Shown here: positions 23,827 through 46,400 of the stretch, piece after piece
Numbering within the stretch: position 1 is the first letter of the stretch
Layout: each line of letters opens with the position of its first letter
IMG/VR virus record: IMGVR_UViG_3300033757_000347
From: a virus
Lineage: Duplodnaviria > Caudoviricetes
Length of the DNA stretch: 64,000 nt
Direction: 5' to 3' (one strand)
The notes under the pieces: generated by a model
Database searches by the model: none
Told to the model about the DNA's origin: nothing
The model's input: the letters and a program-made list of their open reading frames with translations, nothing else
Translations under genes and position numbers: made by a program

Positions 23827-25395
23827 ATGACTCTTAATTATTTTGTAAATTCTAAAACTGGAAGAGTTAATTCGCAACGAGTAAAGAGCAGATGGCTAGA
23901 AAAAAGATTGCCCGAGTTTCTAAAAATGCTAGAAAATACGTATCCGGAACAACTGAGAACAGTTGAACGGATTTACTTGTATTTTAATAATCTTAGTGAA
24001 AAACCTACTTGCAAACACTGTAGATCAAAAAATGTTAAATTTAAGGGTTTATTAAATGGTTATTTTGATTACTGTTCAACTGCCTGTTCGAATGCAAATG
24101 ATACGGTAAAAAAGAATAAAGAAAAATCAGTAATGCAAAAATACGGAGTTAGAAATCCTTTCCAAGCAGATGAAGTTAAGAAAAAAATATCACAAACTTG
24201 CGTTCTTAGATACAATACGAATAATTTTGCTAAAACTAATATTTTCTTAGAAAAAGCTAAGGCAACAAATAATAGTAGGTATGCCGCAAATTGGGTTTTA
24301 CAAAAAAGTAGTACAGTTAGGAATAAGATAAATGAACGAAATGCGATTAACTTTAAAGAATTAATAAAAGCGGATGGTTTACAACTGTTAGACTGGTCTA
24401 ACGAAAAGTTTGGAAATGTTAGACTAACTGGATCGTGCAATCACACGTTCGCATTAAATAAGTGGCAAGTATATCAAAGGTTAATGCAAAAAGTAACGGT
24501 GTGCCCAATTTGCAATCCGTTTAATTCAAACAGTGATACTAATATAGAGTTGATAATTAAAAAAATTCTGGAAAAAAATAATATTGAATACATATCCGGT
24601 GACCGAAACATTATAAAACCACAAGAGGTAGATATTTTTATTCCAGAAAATAACGTAGCCATTGAAATAAATGGAGTGTTTTGGCACTCTGATGTGTTTA
24701 AATCAAAGGATTATCATTTTTGCAAAACCGAATTATGCAGAACCAACGGAGTAAAATTATTGCACATTTGGGAAGATCAGATACTTAATCAATTTGACAT
24801 TATCGAATCTATTATTTTAAGTAAATTAGGAAAATTTAAAGCTCGAATTTACGCACGAAATTGCAAAGTATTAAAAATATCAGCGGCTGATGCTAAGTCG
24901 TTCTTAACCAAAAATCACTTACAAGGACATGTTCCAGCTAAGGTCTACGTTGGCCTATTTTATAAAAATGAATTGATCGCAGTCTCATCATTTGGCAAAT
25001 TACGAAAAGCGCTTGGATCAAACTCTGAAACAGATAGTTGGGAATTATATCGATTTGCTAGTAAACTAAATGTACAAATAATAGGTGGGGCTGGTAAAAT
25101 GATTAAATTTTTTAAACGGTTAGAACCAGTTGCCCGAGTTATTTCATTTGCCTCTGCTGATATTTCAGACGGGGCGGTTTACGAAAAAATTGGATTTTCC
25201 AAAATTAAAAGAACCGGTCCAAGTTATTGGTATATAGAGCCAAATACAAATAAACGGTTTCACAGATATTCATTTAGAAAAGACCAGTTAGTTAAAAATG
25301 GAGCAAACCCAAATTTGACAGAATTTGAAATAATGAATGACCTAAAATACTTAAGAATATGGGATTCTGGGCAATTTCTATTTGAATTAAAATGA
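23827..25395 (+). CDS. Hef-like homing endonuclease
   Basis: KYGVRNP repeat, EVDIFIP..AIEINGVFWH, LLHIWED, IYARNC, IWDSG; AT-rich. Confidence 0.8.
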   Translation: MTLNYFVNSKTGRVNSQRVKSRWLEKRLPEFLKMLENTYPEQLRTVERIYLYFNNLSEKPTCKHCRSKNVKFKGLLNGYFDYCSTACSNANDTVKKNKEKSVMQKYGVRNPFQADEVKKKISQTCVLRYNTNNFAKTNIFLEKAKATNNSRYAANWVLQKSSTVRNKINERNAINFKELIKADGLQLLDWSNEKFGNVRLTGSCNHTFALNKWQVYQRLMQKVTVCPICNPFNSNSDTNIELIIKKILEKNNIEYISGDRNIIKPQEVDIFIPENNVAIEINGVFWHSDVFKSKDYHFCKTELCRTNGVKLLHIWEDQILNQFDIIESIILSKLGKFKARIYARNCKVLKISAADAKSFLTKNHLQGHVPAKVYVGLFYKNELIAVSSFGKLRKALGSNSETDSWELYRFASKLNVQIIGGAGKMIKFFKRLEPVARVISFASADISDGAVYEKIGFSKIKRTGPSYWYIEPNTNKRFHRYSFRKDQLVKNGANPNLTEFEIMNDLKYLRIWDSGQFLFELK

Positions 25396-25462
25396 ATCGC
25401 TTTTAGGTTTTATAATTAAGTGCCGAAAACCCATAGGTCTTTAGCCTATGGGATGTAAGGCA

Positions 25463-25867
25463 CTAACCTTGTTGTTCAATATATTTCCTAATTGTTTCTG
25501 GACTTGCTTCTCCTATTGAGCAACAGAAATATCCATCACTCCATAATGTGCGTTCAGCCCAAAACTCTTTTCTCAACTTACTCTCAAAGAGTTTCCAAGC
25601 GAATATCGTACTCTCTTGCTTGAGTTTTCTAACAATAGATGTTACTGATATGTTCGGTGGATAGTTGATGAGAAAATGGATGTGGTCTTTGTCTGACTCC
25701 ATTATTTCAATATCAAAATCAGACTTTTCTGCGATACCCTTTAAAATACATTTGATAGTATCATTGAATTTGCCTACGAGCAACTTCTTTCTGTACTTAA
25801 TACAGAATATCAAATGACACTTCAAGTAATATTTGTGTCGGTTACTATGCTCATAATCACTCCTCAT
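25463..25867 (-). CDS. tnpA: IS200/IS605 Y1 (HUH) transposase
   Basis: [14 protein letters not shown] (HUH), [15 protein letters not shown]. Confidence 0.95.
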
Positions 25868-25944
25868 ACTACAAAATTAACAAAAATATTTCACTTTTAC
25901 AAAACTTTTCTTGTTTTTGTAAATACTATATGTATATTTGCACT

Positions 25945-27150
25945 ATGATTAAGACGATAAATAGAACATACAGATTTAGGATATATCCAAATGCTTCCCA
26001 AATGGAATTGTTGGCGAAGCACTTCGGCTGTACTCGCTTTGTCTATAACTATTTCCTTAATCAAAGGCAAGAGCAATACAAAGAGGAAGGAGAGAGTGAT
26101 AACTACTATGCTCAGGCAAAGGCTCTAACTGAATTAAAGAAAAAAGAAGAAACCGCTTGGCTTAAAGAAGTAAACTCTCAAACACGTCAATTTGCTTTGC
26201 GTAATCTTGAAACTGTATACACTAATTTCTTCCAAAAGAGAGCGAAGTTCCCTAACTATCACTCAAAGAAAGGTAAGAATACATTTACCGTACCCCAATT
26301 TGCAACTATTGAAGATAGTAAATTGTGGCTACCTAAATTCAAGAGTGGTATAACTATCCGTCTGCATAGAGAAATCAAAGGTAAGATGGGTAAAGTTAGT
26401 CTAACTAAAACTCCAACAGGAAAGTATTTTGTATCAGTATTCACAATAGAGGAGTATCAAGAACTTGCACCTGCTAATAAAGCAGTTGGTGTAGATTTAG
26501 GTTTGAAAGACCTACTGATAACCTCTGATGGTGAAGTATTCAAGAATAATAGATACACAAAGAGATATGAGAAGAAACTTGCAGTAGCACAGAGACACCT
26601 ATCAAGAAAAAAGAAAGGTAGTAATGAGTACGAAAACCAAAGGCTCAAAGTTGCTAAACTCTATGAGAAGATTTCTAATTGCCGTATGGACTACTTGCAT
26701 AAGTGTTCTCACTCTCTAATCTCTAACTACGACACCATTTGTATTGAAGACCTTAATGTGAAAGGTATGGTACGAAACCATAAACTTGCTAAATCAATTA
26801 CTGATGCAAGTTGGGGTACATTCGTCACTATGCTAACATATAAGGCTAATTGGAATGGTAGGAATGTAGTTAAGATTGATAGGTTCTTCCCATCATCTCA
26901 AACTTGTAATGTTTGTGGCTATCGTAATAGCGAAATAAAAGACTTGAAAGTAAGAGAATGGGGTTGCCCATCTTGCGGTACACATCATAATAGAGATGTA
27001 AATGCTGCTATTAATATCCTAAAATTAGGATTAAATAATATATCGGCAGGGACTGCCGATTACACCGATGGAGAGGATAGAAGACCTAATCTTTTGAAAG
27101 GGCATTCCTCTGTGAAGTCGGAAGCCCACGAATCTTTAGTTCGTGGGTAG
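25945..27150 (+). CDS. tnpB: TnpB RNA-guided endonuclease
   Basis: RuvC GVDLG, IEDL, RDVNAA intact; Zn finger CNVC/CPSC; TATATTTG promoter box before ATG 25945. Confidence 0.95.
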
Positions 27151-27175
27151 TTCACAGCACTAAATAAATAAATAA
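27035..27175 (+). ncRNA. TnpB omega-RNA (reRNA) with flank-derived guide AGCACTAAATAAATA...
   Basis: Overlaps tnpB 3' end and RE; stems TCGGCAG/CTGCCGA, GAGGA/TCCTC, CCGA/TCGG; boundaries approximate. Confidence 0.7.
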
Positions 27176-35889: not shown

Positions 35890-37467
35890 TTAGAATAAAG
35901 TAGTGAACTCGCCGTTGATGAAATTCAGGTGCTGAGCCTTTCCGTCCTCGTGAACGATCACGTGAGACTGAAGCCAGCTGCTAGGGCCAATGTTGTAATT
36001 TACTCTGAGCTTGGTCGAAGTGCCGACTGCTAAAGCTCCATCCTTTCTTCCAGGAGAATGATAGTGACCAACAATGATCTTCGTGTTAAGGTTTCTGTAC
36101 TGAGACAGGGAACCGTACGTTCCGTTGGTTCCGATATCACCGTGCTGAGCAAGTTCCCAGTCCTTTATGATGAAACTATCGTTTCTATCGAGAGTTACGA
36201 AATTCGGAAATCTCTGCTTGATGATGTATGGAATGACTCCGTTCTTAGCTTTTCCGCTGAGAATCAGAGCTGCATACTCCATGTACTCTAGAGAATTCTT
36301 CAGAGTTCCGGCTTTTCTCCAATCTGAGGTCTGCAACCACCTATCGAGAAAATCGTCGTGATTTCCTCTGACAATTACTGTCGTAAAGTCGTTGCTGTCA
36401 AAGTCTTCCAGCCCTTCAAGAAGCGCCTCAACCTCGTCTTTCAGAGAATTTGTGCCGTTCATCTCTCGTTCGTACTGAACGAAAGGATTCTTCATGTCAT
36501 GGTGATTTATGGAAAGTCCATCGAACACATCGTGAAGAACGACGTGTTTTGGTTTCATCACGTTAAAGAAATCGAGAGTCTTGTCGATGATCTCCTGGTC
36601 GTGCTGGCCGAAGTGTATGTCACCGAATATGATGGCTGCTATCGTGTCCACCTTCTTTACTGTGCTGACCTTGAATTCTTCGTCGTACTCGACTTTGCTG
36701 TTCAGGTCGGTGAAGTTACCGTTATCGGTGGCAGTGATCTGCCTTACGAAGAAAGTATCATCGTCCTTGATCTCAATGATGACAAAACCTAACGTGTGGT
36801 GGAACTCGCCTTTCTTTCCAGATTTCGAATCTGTGTAGTTCTTTACCGTGCACGCGCCGGTCGTTACCATTATCTTAGGAAGGTTACCTTCCAGGACCGG
36901 AACGGTTTCCATCTGAACTTTTGGCGACCCGAACACGCAGGAGTGAACTCCTGTTAAACCACGAAGACCCGTCATCGGGTCAGTTGCAGTAGGTTGGATC
37001 TTGATGTCTGACATTATCCACATGTTCTTGTGGACGTTGTGCCGGTTAGCGTCGAGGTATTCCTCGATCTTTTCGTCCCACGTATCGTAATTCTTATCGG
37101 TGAATACTGATGTTGGGTTCTTGTACCGTCCTGCTATCACGTGAATGTCCGCGTTTATGTGCTCGGCGTACTTTTCGAGGTTAGAAACGAACGCTTCGTG
37201 AATCGGAGTGTCGTTCTGAGCCCAGGTGATGAGGAACCGCTTTTTAGTGCTCAACTGGCGTTCTTTTGCCTTTATGAGCTGAGGGGATTCTACCATAGCT
37301 TTTTCGGTTAAGCCTAACCGAGCCAACCACTTGGACACGGTTCGTTCCGATTTGTTTAGGTAGCTGCTTAATCTGTTCATTCGTTCATCCCAGCTGAGAG
37401 TAGGGTGCCAGTATATGGCTTTGATGTCTGAGATGTTCTCTTGGGTTAGATCTTCAAATTTCATCAA
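35890..37467 (-). CDS. Calcineurin-like metallophosphoesterase with N-terminal HTH
   Basis: GDIH, HDVFDG, GNHD, QHGD, GHYHS motifs. Confidence 0.8.
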   Translation of the reverse strand: MMKFEDLTQENISDIKAIYWHPTLSWDERMNRLSSYLNKSERTVSKWLARLGLTEKAMVESPQLIKAKERQLSTKKRFLITWAQNDTPIHEAFVSNLEKYAEHINADIHVIAGRYKNPTSVFTDKNYDTWDEKIEEYLDANRHNVHKNMWIMSDIKIQPTATDPMTGLRGLTGVHSCVFGSPKVQMETVPVLEGNLPKIMVTTGACTVKNYTDSKSGKKGEFHHTLGFVIIEIKDDDTFFVRQITATDNGNFTDLNSKVEYDEEFKVSTVKKVDTIAAIIFGDIHFGQHDQEIIDKTLDFFNVMKPKHVVLHDVFDGLSINHHDMKNPFVQYEREMNGTNSLKDEVEALLEGLEDFDSNDFTTVIVRGNHDDFLDRWLQTSDWRKAGTLKNSLEYMEYAALILSGKAKNGVIPYIIKQRFPNFVTLDRNDSFIIKDWELAQHGDIGTNGTYGSLSQYRNLNTKIIVGHYHSPGRKDGALAVGTSTKLRVNYNIGPSSWLQSHVIVHEDGKAQHLNFINGEFTTLF

Positions 37468-37567
37468 ATCTAGGTTATTACAGTTTAATGTATCTATATT
37501 TTACACGTATGCCATATAAAGTTTTGGGCACACTTTCTTCCAAGAATATCAGAATAAATAACCAAGT

Positions 37568-37753
37568 ATGGAAAAGACTCACCAGAATTACAAGAACTAC
37601 CGAGCAGGAAAAGAACCGCTTAAGAATGCAGTTCTGCAGCACCCAGAAGGAAACAGCGTTTACGATTACCTCAAGAGTAAAGTAAACCGGGATCTTTGGG
37701 TTATTCCGTTTGGCAGGTGGGAGAAGAAACAAAAAAAGCTCAGGTCAAGATGA
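37568..37753 (+). CDS. Small basic protein
   Basis: AATAAATA upstream; coupled to next gene. Confidence 0.55.
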   Translation: MEKTHQNYKNYRAGKEPLKNAVLQHPEGNSVYDYLKSKVNRDLWVIPFGRWEKKQKKLRSR

Positions 37754-38235
37754 TCGAAATCGAACAAATGCCGACTTTTCCGATAGAGCCGGAAGAAACC
37801 CAAGAAGTCGTAGCTGACGTTACAACTCCGCCAGCTGAGCAGGTAACCGAAGAAACCACAGTTGCTGAATTCATGCTATCGCTGTTTCAAATAGCCGATC
37901 AAGCGAAAATAATTCACCTGCAAACAGATTCTGACACCGAGCACCGTCACTTTGGCTTGTTCTACGACACGTTCACCGACCAGTTAGATGCTCTCATCGA
38001 GGGAATCGCTGGAAAGTACGGAGCCCAAACTCTTAAGTTTGGTCAAGCTCAGATCGTTCTGTACGACCGGGAAGAAGCGATTCAGATCTTCTTCGAAGTA
38101 GTTGACCAGACTTTGAGAATGAAGTTTGCTTCCCTGTTCGATAGGGAAGCGGATTCGGAACTGTACAACATGGTCGACGAGATGATCACTCTCAAGAACA
38201 AAGTGCAGTACCTTCTGCAGATGAAAAGAAACTAA
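37750..38235 (+). CDS. Ferritin/Dps-like (DUF5856-type) protein
   Basis: KIIHLQT...EHRHFGLFYD...DALIE..GKYG, NMVDEM...NKVQYLL. Confidence 0.7.
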   Translation: MIEIEQMPTFPIEPEETQEVVADVTTPPAEQVTEETTVAEFMLSLFQIADQAKIIHLQTDSDTEHRHFGLFYDTFTDQLDALIEGIAGKYGAQTLKFGQAQIVLYDREEAIQIFFEVVDQTLRMKFASLFDREADSELYNMVDEMITLKNKVQYLLQMKRN

Positions 38236-38241
38236 TCGCGA

Positions 38242-39861
38242 ATGTTCAAAGTAAGAAAGTTTCAACAGTTCGAAAATTTGCTGCTGGAAGCAGACATCAT
38301 CAGGTTCGAAGATCAATTTTCTGGCATAAACCAGGATTTTCGTCACGGTTCAGGAAACGATAGTCAGGAAGAGGACGGCGATCCGAATGCGGAAGCTTGG
38401 AAGAGGTTAGATTACCTCATAGACATGCTTTTGGACAGAGGAATTGTTGACTTGGAACAGGCACTGAAGGATCCGATCTACCAGAAAGAATTTGGATCGG
38501 TTAGGGGAATGGAAATATCTACCGCTTACTTGGAGTACTGCCGAAAAAAGATACGCAGGCTCAGCATACAGCTGGACGAGGAATTCAAAAAAGAGGACCG
38601 TGACGTTGAAGCGATTCAGAGAATCGCAGCAGAACGGATCCAAGTAGCAGCAAGAGTTCAAGCTCTTGAAAGAATTTACGAAGCTTTCAAACTTTTGAGG
38701 CAGGAAGAGTTAGACAGGATAGCGGATGAAGTGCTTAAGAAAGTAGCTAGCATAAAGGATGAAGTTTCCTCGCAGAACGATAACACCATCGTGGAAGTAG
38801 GAAAGCTCATCCAGCCAGAAATGGCACAGATACTGGATTCTGACACTCAGCAGGAAGGAAAAGAACACAGCGCAGCTAAAGTGATAACCACTCTCATCGC
38901 GTTGGAAAAGGTTCTACCCTTTTACGGAGAAGAAACCAAAGCTTCTGCCGAAAAAGCAAAGGAAACTGTAGAGAAAACCATAAAGGATAAGATCGGAGAG
39001 GAACGGTACCAAACGCTGTACAGAACGATCCTATCCAACGACCAGGAGGTACAGATCCTCAAGAGAATACTGAACCTTCGACACCAGAACTTTACTAGCG
39101 AGCAAGATATTTTGAAGGAGATTGATAGCATCAAGATCTCGATAAACGGTCTGGAAGGAGTTCGAAACGGTCGCCCTCTGTCTAAACCGGAAGTCATAGA
39201 ATTCCTAAAAAAGACCCTCACCGAAGAAGCCAAGTACGTTCTAGAAAGAGCTAGGGAAAAGACAATAACTTTAAAAGACGCTAAGGGCATTCACTTCGAC
39301 TTTAGAACGAAGCTGAAACTTCACGAAGCGGTCGACCTTCCTGTGACAGGAAAACAGATAGCTGACGCTACCTGGCTGATGAAATTTAGGAAGAGATTCA
39401 CGTACATAATGAACCTTCTTCCGGTAGGCCAGACTCCGGTAACTCCAGCTGGACAAGCTTGGGCAAACCTAGGAAAGCAGACTCACAAGCTCTACGCTAT
39501 CGCTCTAAACAGCGCTGGCAAGTTCATCGGAAAGATGCTAAAGGGCCGCGAAGGTCAGATGAAAGGCGATGCAGTTACTCGACTGTTCATTCCGGACACG
39601 GGCGTTCTTGACGAACCTGGTCCGTTAGCGTCGAACGCTGTTTCGGAAGAAGTAGCTCCTGGAGTTTCGATGCAGGTCCCAGGTTCTATAGGTTCAATGG
39701 GCCCAATCGTTCCACCTACCGAAAATTCGATAGGCTCCGGAGATAATTTTAATCCAAAGAAGAAAAAGAAGAAAAGAAGAAGCGTTTACGAGGAAAGGAT
39801 GCAGATCATGAACTTCGACGCGTTCGTATCGAAAAATAACAGAATCGGAAATGGCATTTGA
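38242..39861 (+). CDS. Putative virion protein
   Basis: KVRKFQQFE and IMNFDAFV motifs. Confidence 0.65.
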   Translation: MFKVRKFQQFENLLLEADIIRFEDQFSGINQDFRHGSGNDSQEEDGDPNAEAWKRLDYLIDMLLDRGIVDLEQALKDPIYQKEFGSVRGMEISTAYLEYCRKKIRRLSIQLDEEFKKEDRDVEAIQRIAAERIQVAARVQALERIYEAFKLLRQEELDRIADEVLKKVASIKDEVSSQNDNTIVEVGKLIQPEMAQILDSDTQQEGKEHSAAKVITTLIALEKVLPFYGEETKASAEKAKETVEKTIKDKIGEERYQTLYRTILSNDQEVQILKRILNLRHQNFTSEQDILKEIDSIKISINGLEGVRNGRPLSKPEVIEFLKKTLTEEAKYVLERAREKTITLKDAKGIHFDFRTKLKLHEAVDLPVTGKQIADATWLMKFRKRFTYIMNLLPVGQTPVTPAGQAWANLGKQTHKLYAIALNSAGKFIGKMLKGREGQMKGDAVTRLFIPDTGVLDEPGPLASNAVSEEVAPGVSMQVPGSIGSMGPIVPPTENSIGSGDNFNPKKKKKKRRSVYEERMQIMNFDAFVSKNNRIGNGI

Positions 39862-40564
39862 ACTCGGAGATAAAGTGATGGTCAGAGCAAACTCGGACGA
39901 GTTGGAAAGCGATCTCTTTCAAGCTATCGACGGAGTTCGTGCTGAGATAACTGAAATCTACTCTACCGACTACGAACCGGACGTTAAACGTTACGAAGTC
40001 ACTCTTGAGAATCCGGTGGAAATAAACGGGGAAAGATTGGCTGTCGTTCCGGGTTTGTACGAGGATAACTTGGAAAAAGCTGAAGGAAAGAAAAAACAGC
40101 TTTCGGAAAACAGAGCTGTTACTAAATTTGCACTGTTCGAAAACAAGATGGAAGAGTCTTCGTGGTATTACGGTTTAGCAGACTGTCACGGAATAGAATC
40201 GTTCATAAAGGAACCTGACGAAGCAAAGGACTGGACTGATTTTGAGGAACTGTTTACAGTTGGTGTTCTTTCGATCGATCCAACCGAACTTCCTGGGAAA
40301 AGAGCGTACAACACGCAGATCGGAATGATCATCAGACGAGCAAAAGCTAACATTCAAAGGTTTCCTGTTGTGTACAGAGCAAAGTTAAAGGGAAGCGATG
40401 CCATGGTAATCGACCGAATGCTAAACAAGGGACTGTACGAGGAAGCTCTGGTCTACCTTAAGGAAAAATCCGAGCACACTCAGTTGGCTAAGAGGCTGGG
40501 CGGAATGAACGCCGAACGTAATTGGGAAAAGATCCCTAACCCTGAGCTGGATCCAATGTATTAG
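39851..40564 (+). CDS. Hypothetical protein
   Basis: 237 aa, SH3-like N-terminus, internal TKFALFENKME. Confidence 0.65.
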   Translation: MAFELGDKVMVRANSDELESDLFQAIDGVRAEITEIYSTDYEPDVKRYEVTLENPVEINGERLAVVPGLYEDNLEKAEGKKKQLSENRAVTKFALFENKMEESSWYYGLADCHGIESFIKEPDEAKDWTDFEELFTVGVLSIDPTELPGKRAYNTQIGMIIRRAKANIQRFPVVYRAKLKGSDAMVIDRMLNKGLYEEALVYLKEKSEHTQLAKRLGGMNAERNWEKIPNPELDPMY

Positions 40565-40666
40565 GATCACCCAGAAATGATGCTCTTTTGAGTTAATGAT
40601 AACATAAGAACCTATTTTTAGGTTCACCTGAGTTCATCCTACCATTTGGAGGAAGGAAATCGAAAG

Positions 40667-40694
40667 ACGCCGGCCTAGAAGCTAGGCGTTTTTT
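40667..40694 (+). terminator. Intrinsic terminator
   Basis: ACGCCGGCCTAGAAGCTAGGCGT followed by T-run. Confidence 0.55.
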
Positions 40695-40930
40695 GCTTGG
40701 CCAGTTTTCCGGCTATAGTGAACTACCCACCCACGCCATAGGCGATGGGTTAGGCTTCTGACTAACGCACGAAAAGTTTTTAGATCAGTGGTGCTAACAA
40801 TTACAGGTCGTATCTGTCCAAACTTTTTGATGGACGTTTTTAACTTACTGAAATAATACGGATCTTCTTGTTTGTGCGTATTCAGTTGTATAGAATCTAT
40901 GGGTACATAAAGTAGTTTTGTCTCTATCAT
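40682..40930 (-). pseudogene. ParB/Srx N-terminal fragment truncated by IS right end
   Basis: VPIDSI...KLKTSIKKFGQIRPVIVS, then reads through RE sequence. Confidence 0.65.
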
Positions 40931-40943
40931 ATCTTTTCTGTTT

Positions 40944-40978
40944 ATCTACATTAGTAGAAATCTTAATGTGTTCCTAAC
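40944..40978 (-). CRISPR. Solitary Cas12a (type V-A)-like repeat
   Basis: GTTAGGAACACATTAAGATTTCTACTAATGTAGAT, 35 nt, TCTAC-TAAT-GTAGA stem; no second copy seen. Confidence 0.6.
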
Positions 40979-41212
40979 GTGAACTACCTATTGGCTAAAT
41001 ACCAATGGGCTTCGTGCTTCACAGCAACTTGCTTACTGCTCCGAAGAGTTAGAAGTCTTATTGTCGCTCCACACGTGTACTCGCAAGTCCCTTACGAGGT
41101 TTTAATGTCTTGTACTGACAATGCAAATATACAACTTTTAATTTGAACTACCAAATGTTTTTGTCGCTTACATCCCATAGGCTAAAGACCTATGGGTTTT
41201 ACGCTCCTTTCT
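40979..41212 (-). mobile_element. 234-bp IS605 MITE encoding only promoter + omega-RNA scaffold
   Basis: LE hairpin identical to the autonomous element, TTTAT target, TTTG-N20-TATATTTG promoter, covarying omega-RNA, RE GGTAGTTCAC. Confidence 0.85.
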
Positions 41213-41227
41213 ATAAAAAAAGAATCT

Positions 41228-41746
41228 TTAGAAATTGAAGGTCTGTAACACATCCTGATAAAAACTTTCTAATTTTTTCTTGACTTCGTTAATCGGAACT
41301 ATTTTAGTACAATAAGAAGGATAGTCTGTCTCTTCGTCTTCCGTCCAACTAAAGACTGCGAACACAGTACTGCTTTTGTCATCATAATGCTCTAACATGT
41401 CCTTAAACTTTATGTTCTCACAACCATGTGTACGTAAAAATCTAGAAACCAATTTAATTTCTGTATCATCCGTTAAGTTTTTTGGTGTCCAAATAAAAAG
41501 TTTTTCAGAGGAAAGACGTGTATCTTGCCTTTCAAAGAGGAGGTGTATTAAAAGATTCAGTTGACTCCGAGACAAACTTTTGATTCTTGTAATTTGTACA
41601 TTTTTAAGTATGTATTCGTGTTTCAAACATTCCTCGGCTGTATCAAATTCAAATCCGTCCTCTGAAATGTATTTTGTAAATGTTTCTGAACCTACCTTTA
41701 CTGATTGTAAAGCGTATTTGTCTACTGTTTGTACAACTTCTTTCAT
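41228..41746 (-). CDS. Cargo hypothetical protein
   Basis: 172 aa, YISEDGFEFDTAEECLKHE phage-type motif; AT-rich. Confidence 0.7.
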   Translation of the reverse strand: MKEVVQTVDKYALQSVKVGSETFTKYISEDGFEFDTAEECLKHEYILKNVQITRIKSLSRSQLNLLIHLLFERQDTRLSSEKLFIWTPKNLTDDTEIKLVSRFLRTHGCENIKFKDMLEHYDDKSSTVFAVFSWTEDEETDYPSYCTKIVPINEVKKKLESFYQDVLQTFNF

Positions 41747-41921
41747 ATTTTTTGTTTTTTTATTCTAGCTTATTATACCTCAAATTTTATACTAAAGTAT
41801 TGTTTTTTTGTAAAATTTTTATATTCAAGGTTAATTACTATCTTTGTCGCTTACATCCCACAAACTAAAGATTTGTGGGTTTTACGCTCCGTAGTATAAA
41901 TAACAAAAATAGTCAACAGAG

Positions 41922-44039
41922 ATGGGCGGCGGTCCAGGTTTCAACAAACAATCAGCAAACACCGTAGCGAACGGCACTAACACGTGGTCGAGTAGTCAAA
42001 ATTCGTCGACTGTCGAGCTTCTAAAGGTTGAGCAGGCCTTTAGCGGAGTAAACTACTTGGAAGCACTATCCAAAAGAACTAAAGCTGAGCTGGGTCAGTA
42101 CTTGTCAGACGAAGCTCAAAACCAATCTGGCGGGTCTATCATATCGGCTGACACAGACTCAATATTCAATAAATTCTCCATCTTTAAGTACTCCAAGTTC
42201 ATAAACGGAGCAGCTTACCAGCCGGATGCTCATTTTATCGGTTACGCGGCAAAACAGAGCGGAGATCCTTACACCGACACCGTGAATCAAAATGCGGCCG
42301 ATGGATTGCAAGTATTGGTTGACAAGGATAAAACTAGTAAAGCAGCAGCAACTAATGCTAACCTGCAAGCTGCGTATCAGAAGGCTATCGACGATAATCT
42401 AAAGAGAATGCAGGCTCTAAAAAATTCTGCAAACAATTACGCGGTTAAGAATTACTCAGCTATCGCTAACCCGACTGCTAAAAATTTGATACAGTGGGCA
42501 AGCACTCAATCGATGGAAAGCGTTACCGGCTTTCAGCCGTACGCGATGACAGACTTCATGTTCTGCAAGAACTACGGAAAGATTCCTAACAACAGGTTAG
42601 TAACTCTTCGTAGGTACCCATTTCCTATCGATGATCTTATCAGAGCTCCAGGAAACCTAAACCCAATCCCAATTGCGCAAGCGGTAACTTGGTTCGGAGA
42701 AGGAACTGACAACGTTCTGTCGAACATAGGTTTCATGAACTGGGGATTGCGCTGGGAGACGGTAGGGCCTATTGATGATCCGCAGATACTAGAAGGAAAC
42801 GAAGTAACAGTTACCGATTTGATGAAAGTTTTCAAGGACATTCCGAAACTTCAGAAACTTGGCGAAAGGCTAGAAGCAGTTTACGTCGGTCTAAACGGAC
42901 AGGACGCGCAACTCACTCAGCTAAGCCGAGTCGAAGAAAAGCTACAAAAATACTCAAGGGAACTCTACACTCAGGGTCCTTACTGGAACAGGATATACGG
43001 TCCAGTGAACGTTGTGAACGCTTCTACCAGAAGAGCTAGGGGAATGCAGGATGGCTGGGACACGCCGTTCACGTTAAACTTTCATTATTCTTTCAGGTCT
43101 TTCAGCGGGTTGAGCCCAAAGATCGTTGCTCTGGACCTAATAGCAAGCTTTTTGAACTTAACTTACAACGATGCGACTTTCTTGGGCCAGTTAGCTAGGT
43201 ACTTTCCTAGGCTTGGCGTAAAATTCGACGAAACTACTACTCAGATGTTAGGAGAACTCTTAACTTCGTGGGGAACGGTGTTCAACGGTGACATCAACAC
43301 GATGATGAGTAAGATGGAAGCGGTCTTACAGTCAATACAAGCATCGGTTGGAGAAACGGTTAACAACATGGAGCAAGCAATAAAAAACGGAAAAGCTGGA
43401 GAAAAAGCGGAAGCCGCTCTAGTCAACACTTTTCAAGCAGGTACAGCTCTTGCTCTTGCGGATGCTATTCCAAACCTGATCTCCATCAAATCTGCCCTGT
43501 CAGACCGGCCTATCGGAGAATGGCACTTAGTAGTAGGAAACCCAATGAATCCGATCATGGTGATGGGAGACTTAGTCGTGTCGAACTGCATCCTAAAGTT
43601 CGACGAGGAAATGGGGCCTGACGATTTTCCGACCGGCTGCACGTTTACAATAAAACTCCAACAAGGAAAACCTAGGGATAAAGTGGCAATCGAGAGAATG
43701 TTTAACTTGGGAGAAGCTAAGCTGCTCTTCACCAAACTAAGAAATCCGTCGTCAGCTGACGATACGTTCGGAGAAACAAATAACACGAGGTTCAAACAGT
43801 TCTTTTCTACCAGCACAGGAGAAAAGGGAGCAAACGAACTAACGGATGACGACAAGCAAGCTATCCAGCAGCAGTTAGGAACGGGTTCCTTCGATCGTTA
43901 CAGAAACAGAATAAGAAAATCGTACGGGTACGCTCCGCAGATGAACGGCAAAAATCCAGTCTCAGGAGATTCGACGGTCGACCGGATGGACGATTCGTTG
44001 CTGTGGTTGTACTTCGATAAAGATTTGACTAAAACTTAA
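41922..44039 (+). CDS. Baseplate/tail structural protein
   Basis: Late promoter; first gene of baseplate cluster; EWHLVVGNPMNPI...DDFPT. Confidence 0.55.
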   Translation: MGGGPGFNKQSANTVANGTNTWSSSQNSSTVELLKVEQAFSGVNYLEALSKRTKAELGQYLSDEAQNQSGGSIISADTDSIFNKFSIFKYSKFINGAAYQPDAHFIGYAAKQSGDPYTDTVNQNAADGLQVLVDKDKTSKAAATNANLQAAYQKAIDDNLKRMQALKNSANNYAVKNYSAIANPTAKNLIQWASTQSMESVTGFQPYAMTDFMFCKNYGKIPNNRLVTLRRYPFPIDDLIRAPGNLNPIPIAQAVTWFGEGTDNVLSNIGFMNWGLRWETVGPIDDPQILEGNEVTVTDLMKVFKDIPKLQKLGERLEAVYVGLNGQDAQLTQLSRVEEKLQKYSRELYTQGPYWNRIYGPVNVVNASTRRARGMQDGWDTPFTLNFHYSFRSFSGLSPKIVALDLIASFLNLTYNDATFLGQLARYFPRLGVKFDETTTQMLGELLTSWGTVFNGDINTMMSKMEAVLQSIQASVGETVNNMEQAIKNGKAGEKAEAALVNTFQAGTALALADAIPNLISIKSALSDRPIGEWHLVVGNPMNPIMVMGDLVVSNCILKFDEEMGPDDFPTGCTFTIKLQQGKPRDKVAIERMFNLGEAKLLFTKLRNPSSADDTFGETNNTRFKQFFSTSTGEKGANELTDDDKQAIQQQLGTGSFDRYRNRIRKSYGYAPQMNGKNPVSGDSTVDRMDDSLLWLYFDKDLTKT

Positions 44040-44049
44040 CAGATGACGC

Positions 44050-44793
44050 ATGCTTAACTTAAGAACATTAATGAGTAAAACAAGCTTCACCAAGCTCAAC
44101 GGCGATACGATCGTCAATCTCGCGATGAGCACTGTGTCTTTTTTGGGTATCAGAGCTAACTCTGGGAAAGCTTACGTCGTTACGGAAGAAACTGCAATGA
44201 GGCCTGACCTGATCGCTAGCTATTTTTACCAGGACCCTGGCTACTTGGACCTCCTTTTGAAGTACAACGGGTACCCTAACCCGTTTGCTCTGGACGTTGG
44301 AGACATTATCCGAATACCGTCTATGGCTACTCTTTCTAAATTTGGAAGCACCGGAAAAGTAAACGATCCTAAACTCATGGCAGTTAGAAAGAAGTACACC
44401 AACTTGGTCATGGCTCCTAGGTCAAGGAAAGACCAGGTTAGGATGAACTACTTGCTCCAGAAAGGAACCGCTATCAATTCGAACTTAGCCAAGTTGAACG
44501 CGCTCCTTCAGAGCGGGAATCTGTCGAGCTTGAGCTTGTCAGCTTTAAGTTCGCAAATATCCAACATCATGCAGGGCGGGAACTTCTCAGGAACCGGCCC
44601 GCTTACCTCAGCTTACCAAGCAGGCGCTAGCGCTCCGGTACCGCCGAACATTGCTCTCGACAGCGGAGTAAAGATACAGAACGGAAAGATCCTGTTCGGG
44701 TCAGACGTTACTTCCGTAAAGAAGGAAGATTGCACCGAGCCTATTTCCAGAACAAAGCTGAAAGAAACTCTTCTAAAAAATAGGCTGGCATAA
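44050..44793 (+). CDS. Baseplate wedge gp53/LysM-like protein
   Basis: RPDLIASYFY...LLKYNG..NPF.LDVGDIIRIP. Confidence 0.75.
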   Translation: MLNLRTLMSKTSFTKLNGDTIVNLAMSTVSFLGIRANSGKAYVVTEETAMRPDLIASYFYQDPGYLDLLLKYNGYPNPFALDVGDIIRIPSMATLSKFGSTGKVNDPKLMAVRKKYTNLVMAPRSRKDQVRMNYLLQKGTAINSNLAKLNALLQSGNLSSLSLSALSSQISNIMQGGNFSGTGPLTSAYQAGASAPVPPNIALDSGVKIQNGKILFGSDVTSVKKEDCTEPISRTKLKETLLKNRLA

Positions 44794-46400
44794 TGGCACA
44801 GGAGAACAGAGTAACGGTAAGATTTACGCCGACTATCACACCGACCAGAATCGAATTAGCTGATTTCGAAAGCAGCTTGAGCGAGGAGGATCGCAGGAAA
44901 CTGTTCGATGGAACGTACAGCAAGTTCAAGCAGAGAAGAGGTTTTTCTACTCCCCTAGTAATGATAGGAAAGGTTAAGATCCCGCCGGAAAAGATAAAAG
45001 CTTTGCACGTTCGTCAGGAAGATTTTACTCCGACGATATCTGTCACTTTCGTGGACGATGGTCACATTTTCAGCGCTAGGGGTTTTCCTCTGTCCAACAT
45101 CATAGTGAGCGTGTTCGTCAAGTCAACAGTTAAGAAGTTAAAATCGCTGTCTGCTGACTTTCTGATAAACGCGGTTTCATCCATGCCTATTCCTGGAACA
45201 GAAGCAGTTGTGTACACTTTCTCAGGAGAAATGCTAATTCCGACTCTGTACGGAAATTACTCAAAGTCCTACAGAAACATGACTTCGTTGGAAACTCTAG
45301 CTAAGGTAGCAGAAGAGCTCCAGTTAGGATTTGCTGACAACCAGGCGGAAGGAACTTCCGATGCTATGACTTGGATCATGCCGAACTACACGTACAAGGA
45401 GTTCATAACTCAAGTTTCGAAGTACGCTTACAAGGATGACGGGAACTTCTTCGACTGTTTCATCGATAGGTACTACGTGCTCAACTTCATAAACGTCGAA
45501 AAGCAGTTCGCTAGGGACGATGAAGTGGACACCGGGTACATAGCTATAGGACAGACGGAAATGAACAAGGATAGGTTCGATCCGGAAGAAGAGGAGAAAG
45601 AGGATGAGGTTGAAGTGCCGATAATCCTAACCAACTACCCTGAGGCCAGAGCATCCGAGTTCTACATCACCGATTACTCGCTTATGAGCAACCACGGTGA
45701 CATACTCAGAAACAATGCTATTCGCCGGTACATTTACTGGTACGATCACGGATCGGGAAAGGGCGAAGATTCTGAACCTAGGAAGATAGAGGAAATCATT
45801 GATGCTGGAAAGCCTAGCACTTACCCGTTCGAACAGTACGAACAGTTCAGGCTGCACTTCTTGGAACCGCTAACTTCAACGGTCACGAACGACGGAAAGA
45901 AACCTCACACGGTCGAGATACCTGAGTACTTAAGTAACTCAGATAACGATGATGATGGACCAGCAGTAGCAACCGGAGTGTGGTCCGGAATAGATTACGG
46001 TAACGCTCACCCATCTTACAAGTTTGCAGAACTCTTGAACTATCACAATTGGCTGGAAACTGAGAAAAATTTGCTCTTAGTAACGCTGAACGGGTTCAGC
46101 GCAAACGTTATCAGAGGAAGCCGAGTAAAGGTTGAAATTTACATGGACAAAGCATCTGCTATGCTTGGAAGAACGATGGCCAGCGACCAAGAAACGGAAG
46201 TTGACTTGGACGACATCGACACTGGAATACCAAGGATCGACGATCTTCCTCAGGGAGCTATTAGAGATAAAGCTCTGAGCGATTTTTACTACGTAAAATC
46301 GATCTCTTACTCGTACATTGACGGCGAATTTTCGACCAAACTAACCCTAGCTAGAAGGCACTGGTTGTTGCCGTTAGCTAAAAAAGACGTAAAAGTGTAA
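44793..46400 (+). CDS. Baseplate hub (gp27/VgrG-N-like)
   Basis: Position between gp53 and gp5; LSDFYYVKSISY C-terminal motif. Confidence 0.6.
   Translation: MAQENRVTVRFTPTITPTRIELADFESSLSEEDRRKLFDGTYSKFKQRRGFSTPLVMIGKVKIPPEKIKALHVRQEDFTPTISVTFVDDGHIFSARGFPLSNIIVSVFVKSTVKKLKSLSADFLINAVSSMPIPGTEAVVYTFSGEMLIPTLYGNYSKSYRNMTSLETLAKVAEELQLGFADNQAEGTSDAMTWIMPNYTYKEFITQVSKYAYKDDGNFFDCFIDRYYVLNFINVEKQFARDDEVDTGYIAIGQTEMNKDRFDPEEEEKEDEVEVPIILTNYPEARASEFYITDYSLMSNHGDILRNNAIRRYIYWYDHGSGKGEDSEPRKIEEIIDAGKPSTYPFEQYEQFRLHFLEPLTSTVTNDGKKPHTVEIPEYLSNSDNDDDGPAVATGVWSGIDYGNAHPSYKFAELLNYHNWLETEKNLLLVTLNGFSANVIRGSRVKVEIYMDKASAMLGRTMASDQETEVDLDDIDTGIPRIDDLPQGAIRDKALSDFYYVKSISYSYIDGEFSTKLTLARRHWLLPLAKKDVKV

Follow-up and report, generated by a model that had tools for sequence, protein, structure and literature searches.

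A 64,000-nucleotide stretch of a Caudoviricetes phage genome (IMG/VR record IMGVR_UViG_3300033757_000347; hereafter "the window") carries, at positions 40,944 to 41,212, a short transposon-derived element lying directly against a sequence that resembles a single CRISPR repeat. The element is a 234-bp, protein-free relative of the IS200/IS605 insertion sequences (IS), i.e., a miniature inverted-repeat transposable element (MITE) or palindrome-associated transposable element (PATE), and it combines a left end (LE), a tnpB-type promoter box, an omegaRNA scaffold, and a right end (RE). Both this MITE and the adjoining 35-nt repeat-like sequence (35-mer) are enclosed in a larger transposable element, a nested context marked by a second LE and a third RE that was overlooked in the original prediction for this locus, which proposed a TnpB/Cas12a hybrid RNA system. 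The window corresponds to bases 38941-102940, read on the minus strand, of a 174-kb IMG/VR phage record, for which CheckV estimates a completeness of 67%, and the pentamer TTTAT, the insertion target of these elements, occurs at 572 sites in the genome. The phage lineage is probably Bacteroidota-associated, and the closest TnpB from an isolated phage (Parabacteroides phage PF672P2, 73.8% identity) fits the Bacteroidota-type promoter boxes of this phage. A sister phage, L037 (131-kb record, 51% complete, 84-89% nucleotide identity), was available for comparison, and CRISPR arrays and repeat copies were sought across viral (IMG/VR), Joint Genome Institute (JGI) metagenome, and species-representative genome (185,579 species genomes) collections. 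Neither the locus nor the MITE matched anything in the GenBank phage collection, and Rfam at the gathering threshold gave no match across the whole window, with no Rfam family fitting the omegaRNA scaffold. The features of the locus, in window coordinates, are:

40718..41895, minus strand: outer non-autonomous IS605-type element, 1178 bp, absent from sister phage L037; contains the MITE, the repeat, and the cargo
41896..41900, minus strand: TTTAT target of the outer element
41843..41895, minus strand: second left end (LE'), its hairpin compensated (CCCACAAATCTTTAGTTTGTGGG); the stem recurs, with a single loop base changed, in an RE at the record end
40718..40761, minus strand: right arm (RE''), hairpin CCCATCGCCTATGGCGTGGG followed by GGGTAGTTCAC; the same RE type is found in MITE L056
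41213..41217, minus strand: TTTAT target and transposon-associated motif (TAM), directly 5' of the MITE left end
40979..41212, minus strand: the 234-bp protein-free IS200/IS605 MITE/PATE
41167..41200, minus strand: LE hairpin region of the MITE, 34/34 nt identical to the autonomous IS
41124..41155, minus strand: Bacteroidota-type promoter motif TTTG-N20-TATATTTG, remnant of a tnpB promoter/start region
40979..41100, minus strand: omegaRNA scaffold of six helices (covariation; single-sequence fold), ending in the RE hairpin and GGTAGTTCAC
40944..40978, minus strand: solitary Cas12a-type repeat-like 35-mer, whose 3' 20 nt form a UCUAC/GUAGA handle and which doubles as the would-be guide of the MITE

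The MITE, its family and the resident IS

On the minus strand, the MITE starts at 41212, immediately after TTTAT (41217-41213), and ends in ...GGTAGTTCAC at 40979. The sequence-level claims of the original prediction all proved correct. Its left end is, as had been claimed, that of the autonomous IS residing in the same window: the 34-nt LE string occurs exactly twice, at 25426-25459 (+) in the IS and at 41200-41167 (-) in the MITE, with no occurrence expected from shuffled sequences. The description of the element as protein-free was likewise borne out, with no open reading frame (ORF) of at least 40 aa on its own strand. A 55-codon GTG-start ORF at 40979-41146 (+) runs antisense across the omegaRNA scaffold and is probably spurious. 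The Bacteroidota-type promoter was found where predicted (41155-41124), and the motif TTTG-N20-TATATTTG is by itself not rare (4 occurrences in the window vs. 1.64 expected). Its -7 box (GTATATTTGCA, with TTTG 20 nt upstream) is retained in other MITE copies and is homologous to the box that, in the IS, immediately precedes the likely start codon of tnpB. This homology identifies the MITE as a tnpB-type element from which the ORF was deleted and in which the promoter was kept.

The 3' 120 nt of the MITE can be aligned to the final 120 nt of the IS, where the omegaRNA overlaps the end of tnpB, and every one of the compensatory stem changes previously listed was confirmed in this alignment. Covariation was evaluated on an alignment of 13 sequences including the IS tnpB 3' end, using 35 pairs in six scaffold helices, five measures, and 500 shuffles. 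Across the 13 sequences, 96.9% of the cells pair and 16 of the 35 pairs have changed on both sides, a level of covariation not reached on any of the five measures by any of the 500 shuffles, and sliding the 3' partners as a control reduced pairing to 31-43%. RNAalifold predicted 39 pairs from the same alignment, and the RE hairpin (helix 6) is compensated across copies.

An exact 21-mer from the first MITE stem retrieved 12 further IMG/VR contigs, all 12 of them protein-free (at least 13 copies in all), which have the promoter box, scaffold, and RE in common, and tblastn with TnpB gave no match upstream of the scaffold in these other MITE copies. TTTAT precedes the LE in 9/9 of the other copies retaining an LE, as it does in the IS, the MITE, and the outer element. 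Three copies (L049, L050, and L052) have kept the promoter box, scaffold, and RE but lack an LE motif across the 260 nt of upstream sequence searched, and would be immobile omegaRNA genes. A looser motif common to the MITE and the IS extended the family to at least 62 loci in IMG/VR (contigs L065-L118 among them). Among the matches listed, ~27 of these loci have a tnpB upstream and ~25 have none within 1.3 kb; with ~25 of 62 sampled loci lacking an upstream tnpB, protein-free omegaRNA elements are common in these phages. Several large phage contigs hold 3-4 family copies, e.g., IMGVR_UViG_3300045988_152231 and _155520.

The flanks of these copies bear directly on the proposed hybrid. Ten other MITE copies have a usable 3' flank, and the ten flanks are unrelated. 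In the wider family, we considered ~46 copies, with or without tnpB, whose RE end lies within the fetched DNA (including the ten MITE copies, L054, and L056): among the matches listed, none of these ~46 copies with a located RE has a Cas12a handle (TCTAC-N3-6-GTAGA) within 80 nt after the RE. The suggested survey for recurrent insertion at repeats thus turned up no such case among the ~46 listed family copies.

The autonomous IS itself lies in the same window and includes:

25414..27155, plus strand: autonomous IS200/IS605, directly after TTTAT; candidate source in trans of TnpA and TnpB
25463-25867, minus strand: tnpA (Y1_Tnp match, E 1e-34)
25945-27150, plus strand: tnpB (OrfB_IS605, TNB, and HTH domains)
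~27036-27155: omegaRNA, overlapping the 3' end of tnpB

This IS is absent from the sister phage L037, and its tnpB is the only one in the whole record. As in ISDra2, its pentanucleotide TAM is also the transposon target, and this pentamer is TTTAT here vs. TTGAT in ISDra2. The alignment of the resident TnpB with that of ISDra2 (PDB 8H1J/8EXA, E 2e-85) spans the full length of the protein, and in the alignment to the closest PDB TnpB-type nuclease all three RuvC motif contexts (GVDLG, IEDLN, RDxNAAxNI) are identical. The likeness to the ISDra2 TnpB-omegaRNA system (8H1J, 8EXA) extends to the omegaRNA, which overlaps the 3' end of tnpB and stops at the RE. Of the earlier claim that the MITE RNA loads the phage TnpB in trans, one part stands, namely that a protein-free omegaRNA MITE would need both TnpB and TnpA from elsewhere; use of the resident TnpB is only assumed. 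One complete 114-kb phage carries a MITE copy along with a sole TnpB that is 36% identical to the resident one, and no TnpB was found in the sister record (131 kb, 51% complete) or in three shorter fragments. Judging from such MITE-family phages devoid of a close TnpB, the partners of these MITEs may often be host-encoded proteins.

PATEs whose omegaRNAs need TnpB in trans have already been described (Meers et al., bioRxiv 10.1101/2023.03.14.532601). Similar to these, the MITE has no protein gene, has subterminal LE and RE hairpins, is inserted 3' of a TAM without target duplication, and has an omegaRNA scaffold at its RE guided by the flanking DNA, so that both TnpA and TnpB are needed in trans. 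Unlike the PATEs of Meers et al., it is borne by a phage (probably Bacteroidota-associated), has kept a Bacteroidota-type tnpB promoter box, uses TTTAT as its TAM, and is nested within another element. The reading of the feature as a MITE with a trans-acting omegaRNA is supported and known in kind; what is new is a nested, cargo-carrying IS605-type element with a candidate RNA anti-CRISPR (Racr) inside.

The outer element and its captured cargo

The LE' of the outer element (41895-41843) is an 84% identical left end with a fully compensated hairpin, and the opposite boundary is formed by a third right end, in which a distinct compensated hairpin is followed by GGGTAGTTCAC and terminates at 40718. 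The sister phage L037 is colinear with the window over 37000-40717 and 41896-44996, has nothing in between, and displays an intact empty site (...GTTATTTAT|TATCGCCGG..., i.e., TTTAT|TATCGCC). This clean empty site indicates that 40718-41895 represents a single IS605-type insertion without target duplication. The outer element consists of short terminal arms, 124 nt on the left and 44 nt on the right, that enclose captured phage DNA, and it has no omegaRNA scaffold of its own upstream of the right arm. Beyond the window, the record closes with another right end (…AAGCCCACAAATCTTCAGTTTGTGGGTAGTTCAC; G000:C1:174426-174479), whose stem matches LE', with one loop base different; it represents a second IS variant truncated where the contig stops.

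In its overall design, the outer element is reminiscent of passenger-carrying (transporter) IS and composite-like IS605 elements, in which transposon ends flank captured non-transposon DNA that is moved as a unit into a canonical target. It differs from transporter IS in its short arms (124 nt and 44 nt), in the microhomology at its right junction, and in a cargo made of a phage gene, a spacer, and a truncated parB. The captured genes are:

41228..41746, minus strand: ORF172, captured passenger gene without Pfam, PHROG, or PDB match
40762..40930, minus strand: first 56 codons of a captured ParB_N gene, which as ORF82 (40930->40682) runs on into the RE arm and the flank

ORF82 begins as a parB head, with 54/66 residues identical to the representative of a ParB_N cluster. 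Only two relatives of ORF172 were found among 5.8 billion proteins, at 95% and 82% identity, and IMG/VR yielded no relatives of either ORF172 or the ParB fragment. In four other contigs (L061-L064), ORF172 is neighboured by a 164-aa ParB_N gene, the pair being located downstream of FolE, QueD, and QueC genes. These upstream genes (FolE, GTP cyclohydrolase I; QueD, PTPS; and QueC) suggest that the donor-type phages hold a 7-deazaguanine DNA-modification cluster. Identity between the outer element and L061 is 97% over a segment that begins 25 nt before ORF172 and extends to the ORF172 stop, and again from the handle region through parB codon 56, where the right cargo junction displays microhomology. 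Based on these alignments, the cargo (ORF172, spacer, and parB codons 1-56) was captured from another phage lineage, and the locus exemplifies how IS605-type ends capture phage DNA and transfer it between lineages, with the outer element an example of TnpA-type ends moving phage genes in this way. ORF172 has no recognisable anti-CRISPR (Acr) or anti-CRISPR-associated (Aca) features; the Atlas gives only unnamed viral clusters for it, and its AlphaFold model has a pLDDT of 41.

Because the large protein set contains a single, near-identical cluster of ParB_N homologues, only three allele types of the ORF172-parB spacer can be compared. With the MITE removed, the spacer of this phage reads ...AGATTCTTTTTTTAT|GTTAGGAACACATTAAGATTTCTACTAATGTAGAT AAACAGAAAAGATATG. 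The L064 spacer has the same short length, lacks a MITE, and reads ...ATTAGGAACACACTGAGATTTCTACTAATGTAAAC, with six changes relative to the 35-mer (83% identical over 35 nt), two of which fall in the essential GTAGAT; the stem is broken in its handle, which reads GTAAAC, and the pentamer before this 35-nt sequence is TATAT. The third allele type, also without a MITE, is found in L061-L063, where near-identical flanks adjoin the junction and TTTTTTTAT|GTTCGGGACACAG is followed by a ~170-nt cassette ending in ...GATTTTAAAAATGTAAAT; in L061, the MITE-free joint thus reads TTTTTTTAT|GTTCGGG..., and the cassette contains a 43-codon ORF. This cassette (L061:4520-4740, also L062 and L063) and its ORF sit between 97%-identical flanks, and the spot between ORF172 and parB is thus a swap site for small accessory modules. 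The existence of homologous ORF172-parB spacers without a MITE indicates that the repeat-like 35-mer belongs to the spacer and not to the MITE. By the same comparison, the 35-mer is not conserved as a Cas12a handle, and the L061 and L064 alleles probably escape the MITE guide, since either the seed or the TAM differs.

The solitary Cas12a-type repeat

The 35-mer occurs once in the window and once in the 174-kb record, is intergenic, and is co-oriented with its flanking genes. Its 3' 20 nt (AGATTTCTACTAATGTAGAT) are 20/20 identical to the array repeat of a Candidatus Kaiserbacteria metagenome-assembled genome (MAG), which has two arrays with a period of ~63 nt, one of them on the same contig as a 1283-aa Cas12a (TIGR04330, 383.7 bits). 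The type V-A handle form, AAUUUCUACU-loop-GUAGAU with a 5-bp stem, is present in the 35-mer, and the hairpin forms in the predicted fold. Compared to the canonical handle AAUUUCUACUGUUGUAGAU, known from the literature as a Cas12a CRISPR RNA (crRNA) scaffold, this handle differs only at one base outside the stem and in the loop; the exact handle string was not found in a literature search. The 15 fixed handle bases have a chance expectation of 1.4e-3 per 174-kb genome.

No further copy of this repeat emerged from the collections searched. A 31-mer of the repeat has no other copy in IMG/VR, a 25-mer and a 23-mer have none in JGI metagenome contigs, and a 19-mer matched, across the 185,579 species genomes, only the Kaiserbacteria arrays (with a differing 5' half) and three single sites. 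The 5' 15 nt have no array match, and no Cas12a is encoded in the phage record. An 18-mer was found in 28 IMG/VR contigs, none of which has the flanks of this locus; most of these matches look like ordinary genes, since they cluster in small sets of contigs whose flanks are near-identical and lack a repeat-like 5' half. The search for arrays with this repeat, suggested together with the original prediction, accordingly gave none in the viral, metagenome, or species-representative genome collections. It had also been stated that the RE abuts base 1 of the repeat: the RE end does meet the 35-mer exactly, but the first base of the repeat could be set only against a cognate array, and the searches found none. 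In a Ruminococcus MAG (L006:6057-6092) and in L014, the same Cas12a handle occurs as a single copy with repeat-like sequence before it, in AT-rich DNA that is apparently intergenic, and these are possible solitary repeat units elsewhere.

Solitary repeat units (SRUs) are a known feature of viral genomes, with 2,103 viral SRUs reported and RacrVA1-3 validated (Camara-Wilpert et al. 2023, PMC10651486). The 35-mer resembles these Racrs and SRUs (PMC10651486) in being a single CRISPR-type repeat with a V-A handle in a phage intergenic region, with no neighbouring repeat. Unlike the Racrs (PMC10651486), it has no full-length match to a known repeat, no identified host array, and no recognisable acr neighbour, it is not conserved in homologous loci, and it lies in transposon cargo directly behind an omegaRNA. 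The 35-mer may hence be a solitary-repeat (Racr) candidate or a decaying relic, and the chance that it binds a host Cas12a is put at about one in three. A further candidate function, in which the repeat and the downstream 24 nt would act as a self-made crRNA against competitors, was dropped, as the L061 and L064 sites have no TTTV protospacer-adjacent motif (PAM) before the matching sequence.

Origin and possible function of the junction

Taken together, these observations make it likely that the feature is an ordinary nested transposon arrangement, in which the MITE landed at a TTTAT situated before the repeat, and not a designed hybrid. An element that has lost tnpB and kept its LE, promoter box, scaffold, and RE inserted 3' of TTTAT, the target and TAM of its family; in the ORF172-ParB_N spacer, this particular TTTAT lies immediately ahead of the 35-nt repeat-like sequence. 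The ORF172-spacer-parB head is carried inside the 1178-bp element, itself inserted at another TTTAT of this phage. The MITE could be transcribed from its own retained promoter and its omegaRNA loaded in trans on a TnpB, either the ISDra2-like enzyme of the phage or one from the host. With the flank as guide, TnpB would then cut the MITE-less joint TTTAT+GTTAGGAACACATTAAGATT, and such cleavage might bias repair towards the MITE-bearing copy, e.g., in co-infection, favouring retention or homing of an element that trans-supplied TnpA would move. That the guide equals the repeat follows from the fact that a TnpB guide is always the flank where the element lands, and the locus exemplifies a TnpB guide set purely by landing site. 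The predicted guide (the 16-20 nt after the RE) and target (a MITE-free TTTAT allele) follow the same ordinary IS605 donor-joint logic, and MITE-free alleles were indeed found.

Several points weigh against this nested-transposon reading. The MITE and the resident IS differ in the 12 nt that separate TTTAT from the LE hairpin, the MITE scaffold has clearly diverged from the resident omegaRNA, and it is assumed that the MITE uses the resident TnpB and TnpA. The prior for landing on the one TTTAT that abuts the sole Cas12a-like handle in 174 kb is ~1/572, and the junction may have been selected, e.g., if the repeat is driven by the MITE promoter. The MITE may also have inserted either before or after capture of the cargo.

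As for the repeat, the scales are evenly poised on whether its Cas12a likeness is due to chance or is the dead relic of a repeat in drifting intergenic DNA, to which nothing binds. Relative to L064, the 35-mer (83% identical, 6 differences) is no better kept than its flanks, and the changes strike the essential GTAGAT; both other alleles have GTAAA where this phage has GTAGA, and the collections searched hold no cognate array. Pure chance fits poorly, however, with a 20/20 match to a natural V-A repeat when 15 fixed bases alone are expected about 1e-3 times per genome, and drift fits poorly with a spacer swapped between flanks 97% identical to L061, which points to a discrete module.

It is unlikely, by our assessment, that the repeat is a working RNA anti-CRISPR (RacrVA-like) or crRNA-like RNA, with the MITE kept as its promoter and the 1178-bp element acting as an anti-CRISPR cassette moved by TnpA. 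Cassette polymorphism is frequent at anti-defence loci, and the spot is indeed polymorphic (repeat here, 43-codon ORF in L061), with the whole cassette transposed as one unit. The intergenic position of the 35-mer, its co-orientation with the neighbouring genes, the identity of its 3' 20 nt to a genuine V-A repeat beside cas12a, and the low chance expectation of the 15 handle bases (1.4e-3 per 174 kb) all argue in the same direction, but the 5' 15 nt match none of the known repeats compared, and the genome and metagenome searches found no host array with this repeat. The handle is moreover not conserved, with the stem broken by GTAAAC in L064 and no handle in L061-L063, the repeat lacks a terminator of its own, and neighbouring ORF172 has no recognisable Acr or Aca features. 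Handle-like strings are also expected by chance over many windows, as illustrated by the exact 18-mer in 28 IMG/VR contigs, even though V-A Racrs as such have been experimentally validated (PMC10651486). If this reading were true, the locus would provide an RNA anti-CRISPR as transposon cargo and possible cross-talk between the RNAs of TnpB and Cas12a, ancestor with descendant.

Less probable again is a combination of these ideas, in which a working Racr travels as IS605 cargo under the MITE promoter and one transcript feeds two effectors, a Cas12a cut 5' of the handle yielding both an omegaRNA with a ~16-nt guide for TnpB and a non-targeting Cas12a-bound RNA. A single-sequence fold accommodates the first scaffold stem together with the RE and handle hairpins in the same transcript, so that TnpB/Cas12a cross-talk is permitted, and not supported, by this model.

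The original prediction of a dedicated TnpB/Cas12a hybrid, in which the MITE-repeat junction was selected and one transcript both arms TnpB against TTTAT-preceded host V-A arrays or leaders and supplies a Cas12a-processable decoy, is very improbable. In its favour, there is no gap between the RE and the repeat-like 35-mer, both the promoter box and the structured scaffold have been preserved, the handle hairpin is predicted to fold independently in the fused transcript, and an apparently intact TnpB is encoded by the same phage. Against it, the junction was found in the IMG/VR, metagenome, and species-representative genome collections only in this record, the ten other MITE copies and the ~46 wider-family copies listed have unrelated flanks, homologous spacers without the MITE exist, the Kaiserbacteria arrays sharing the 3' 19-mer differ in their 5' half, so that a 20-nt guide would mismatch, and the repeats that could be cut are limited to those after a spacer ending in TTTAT. 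Unrelated flanks at the other copies and no matching host array are the very outcomes that the prediction itself had named as speaking against it. Its decoy component would in effect amount to the known Racr concept.

Beside the autonomous IS, a 522-aa ORF (window 23827-25395) is unmatched in the record of the sister phage, where similarity in that stretch starts only at window position 27165, and has weak matches to DUF7487, Mom, and Vsr.

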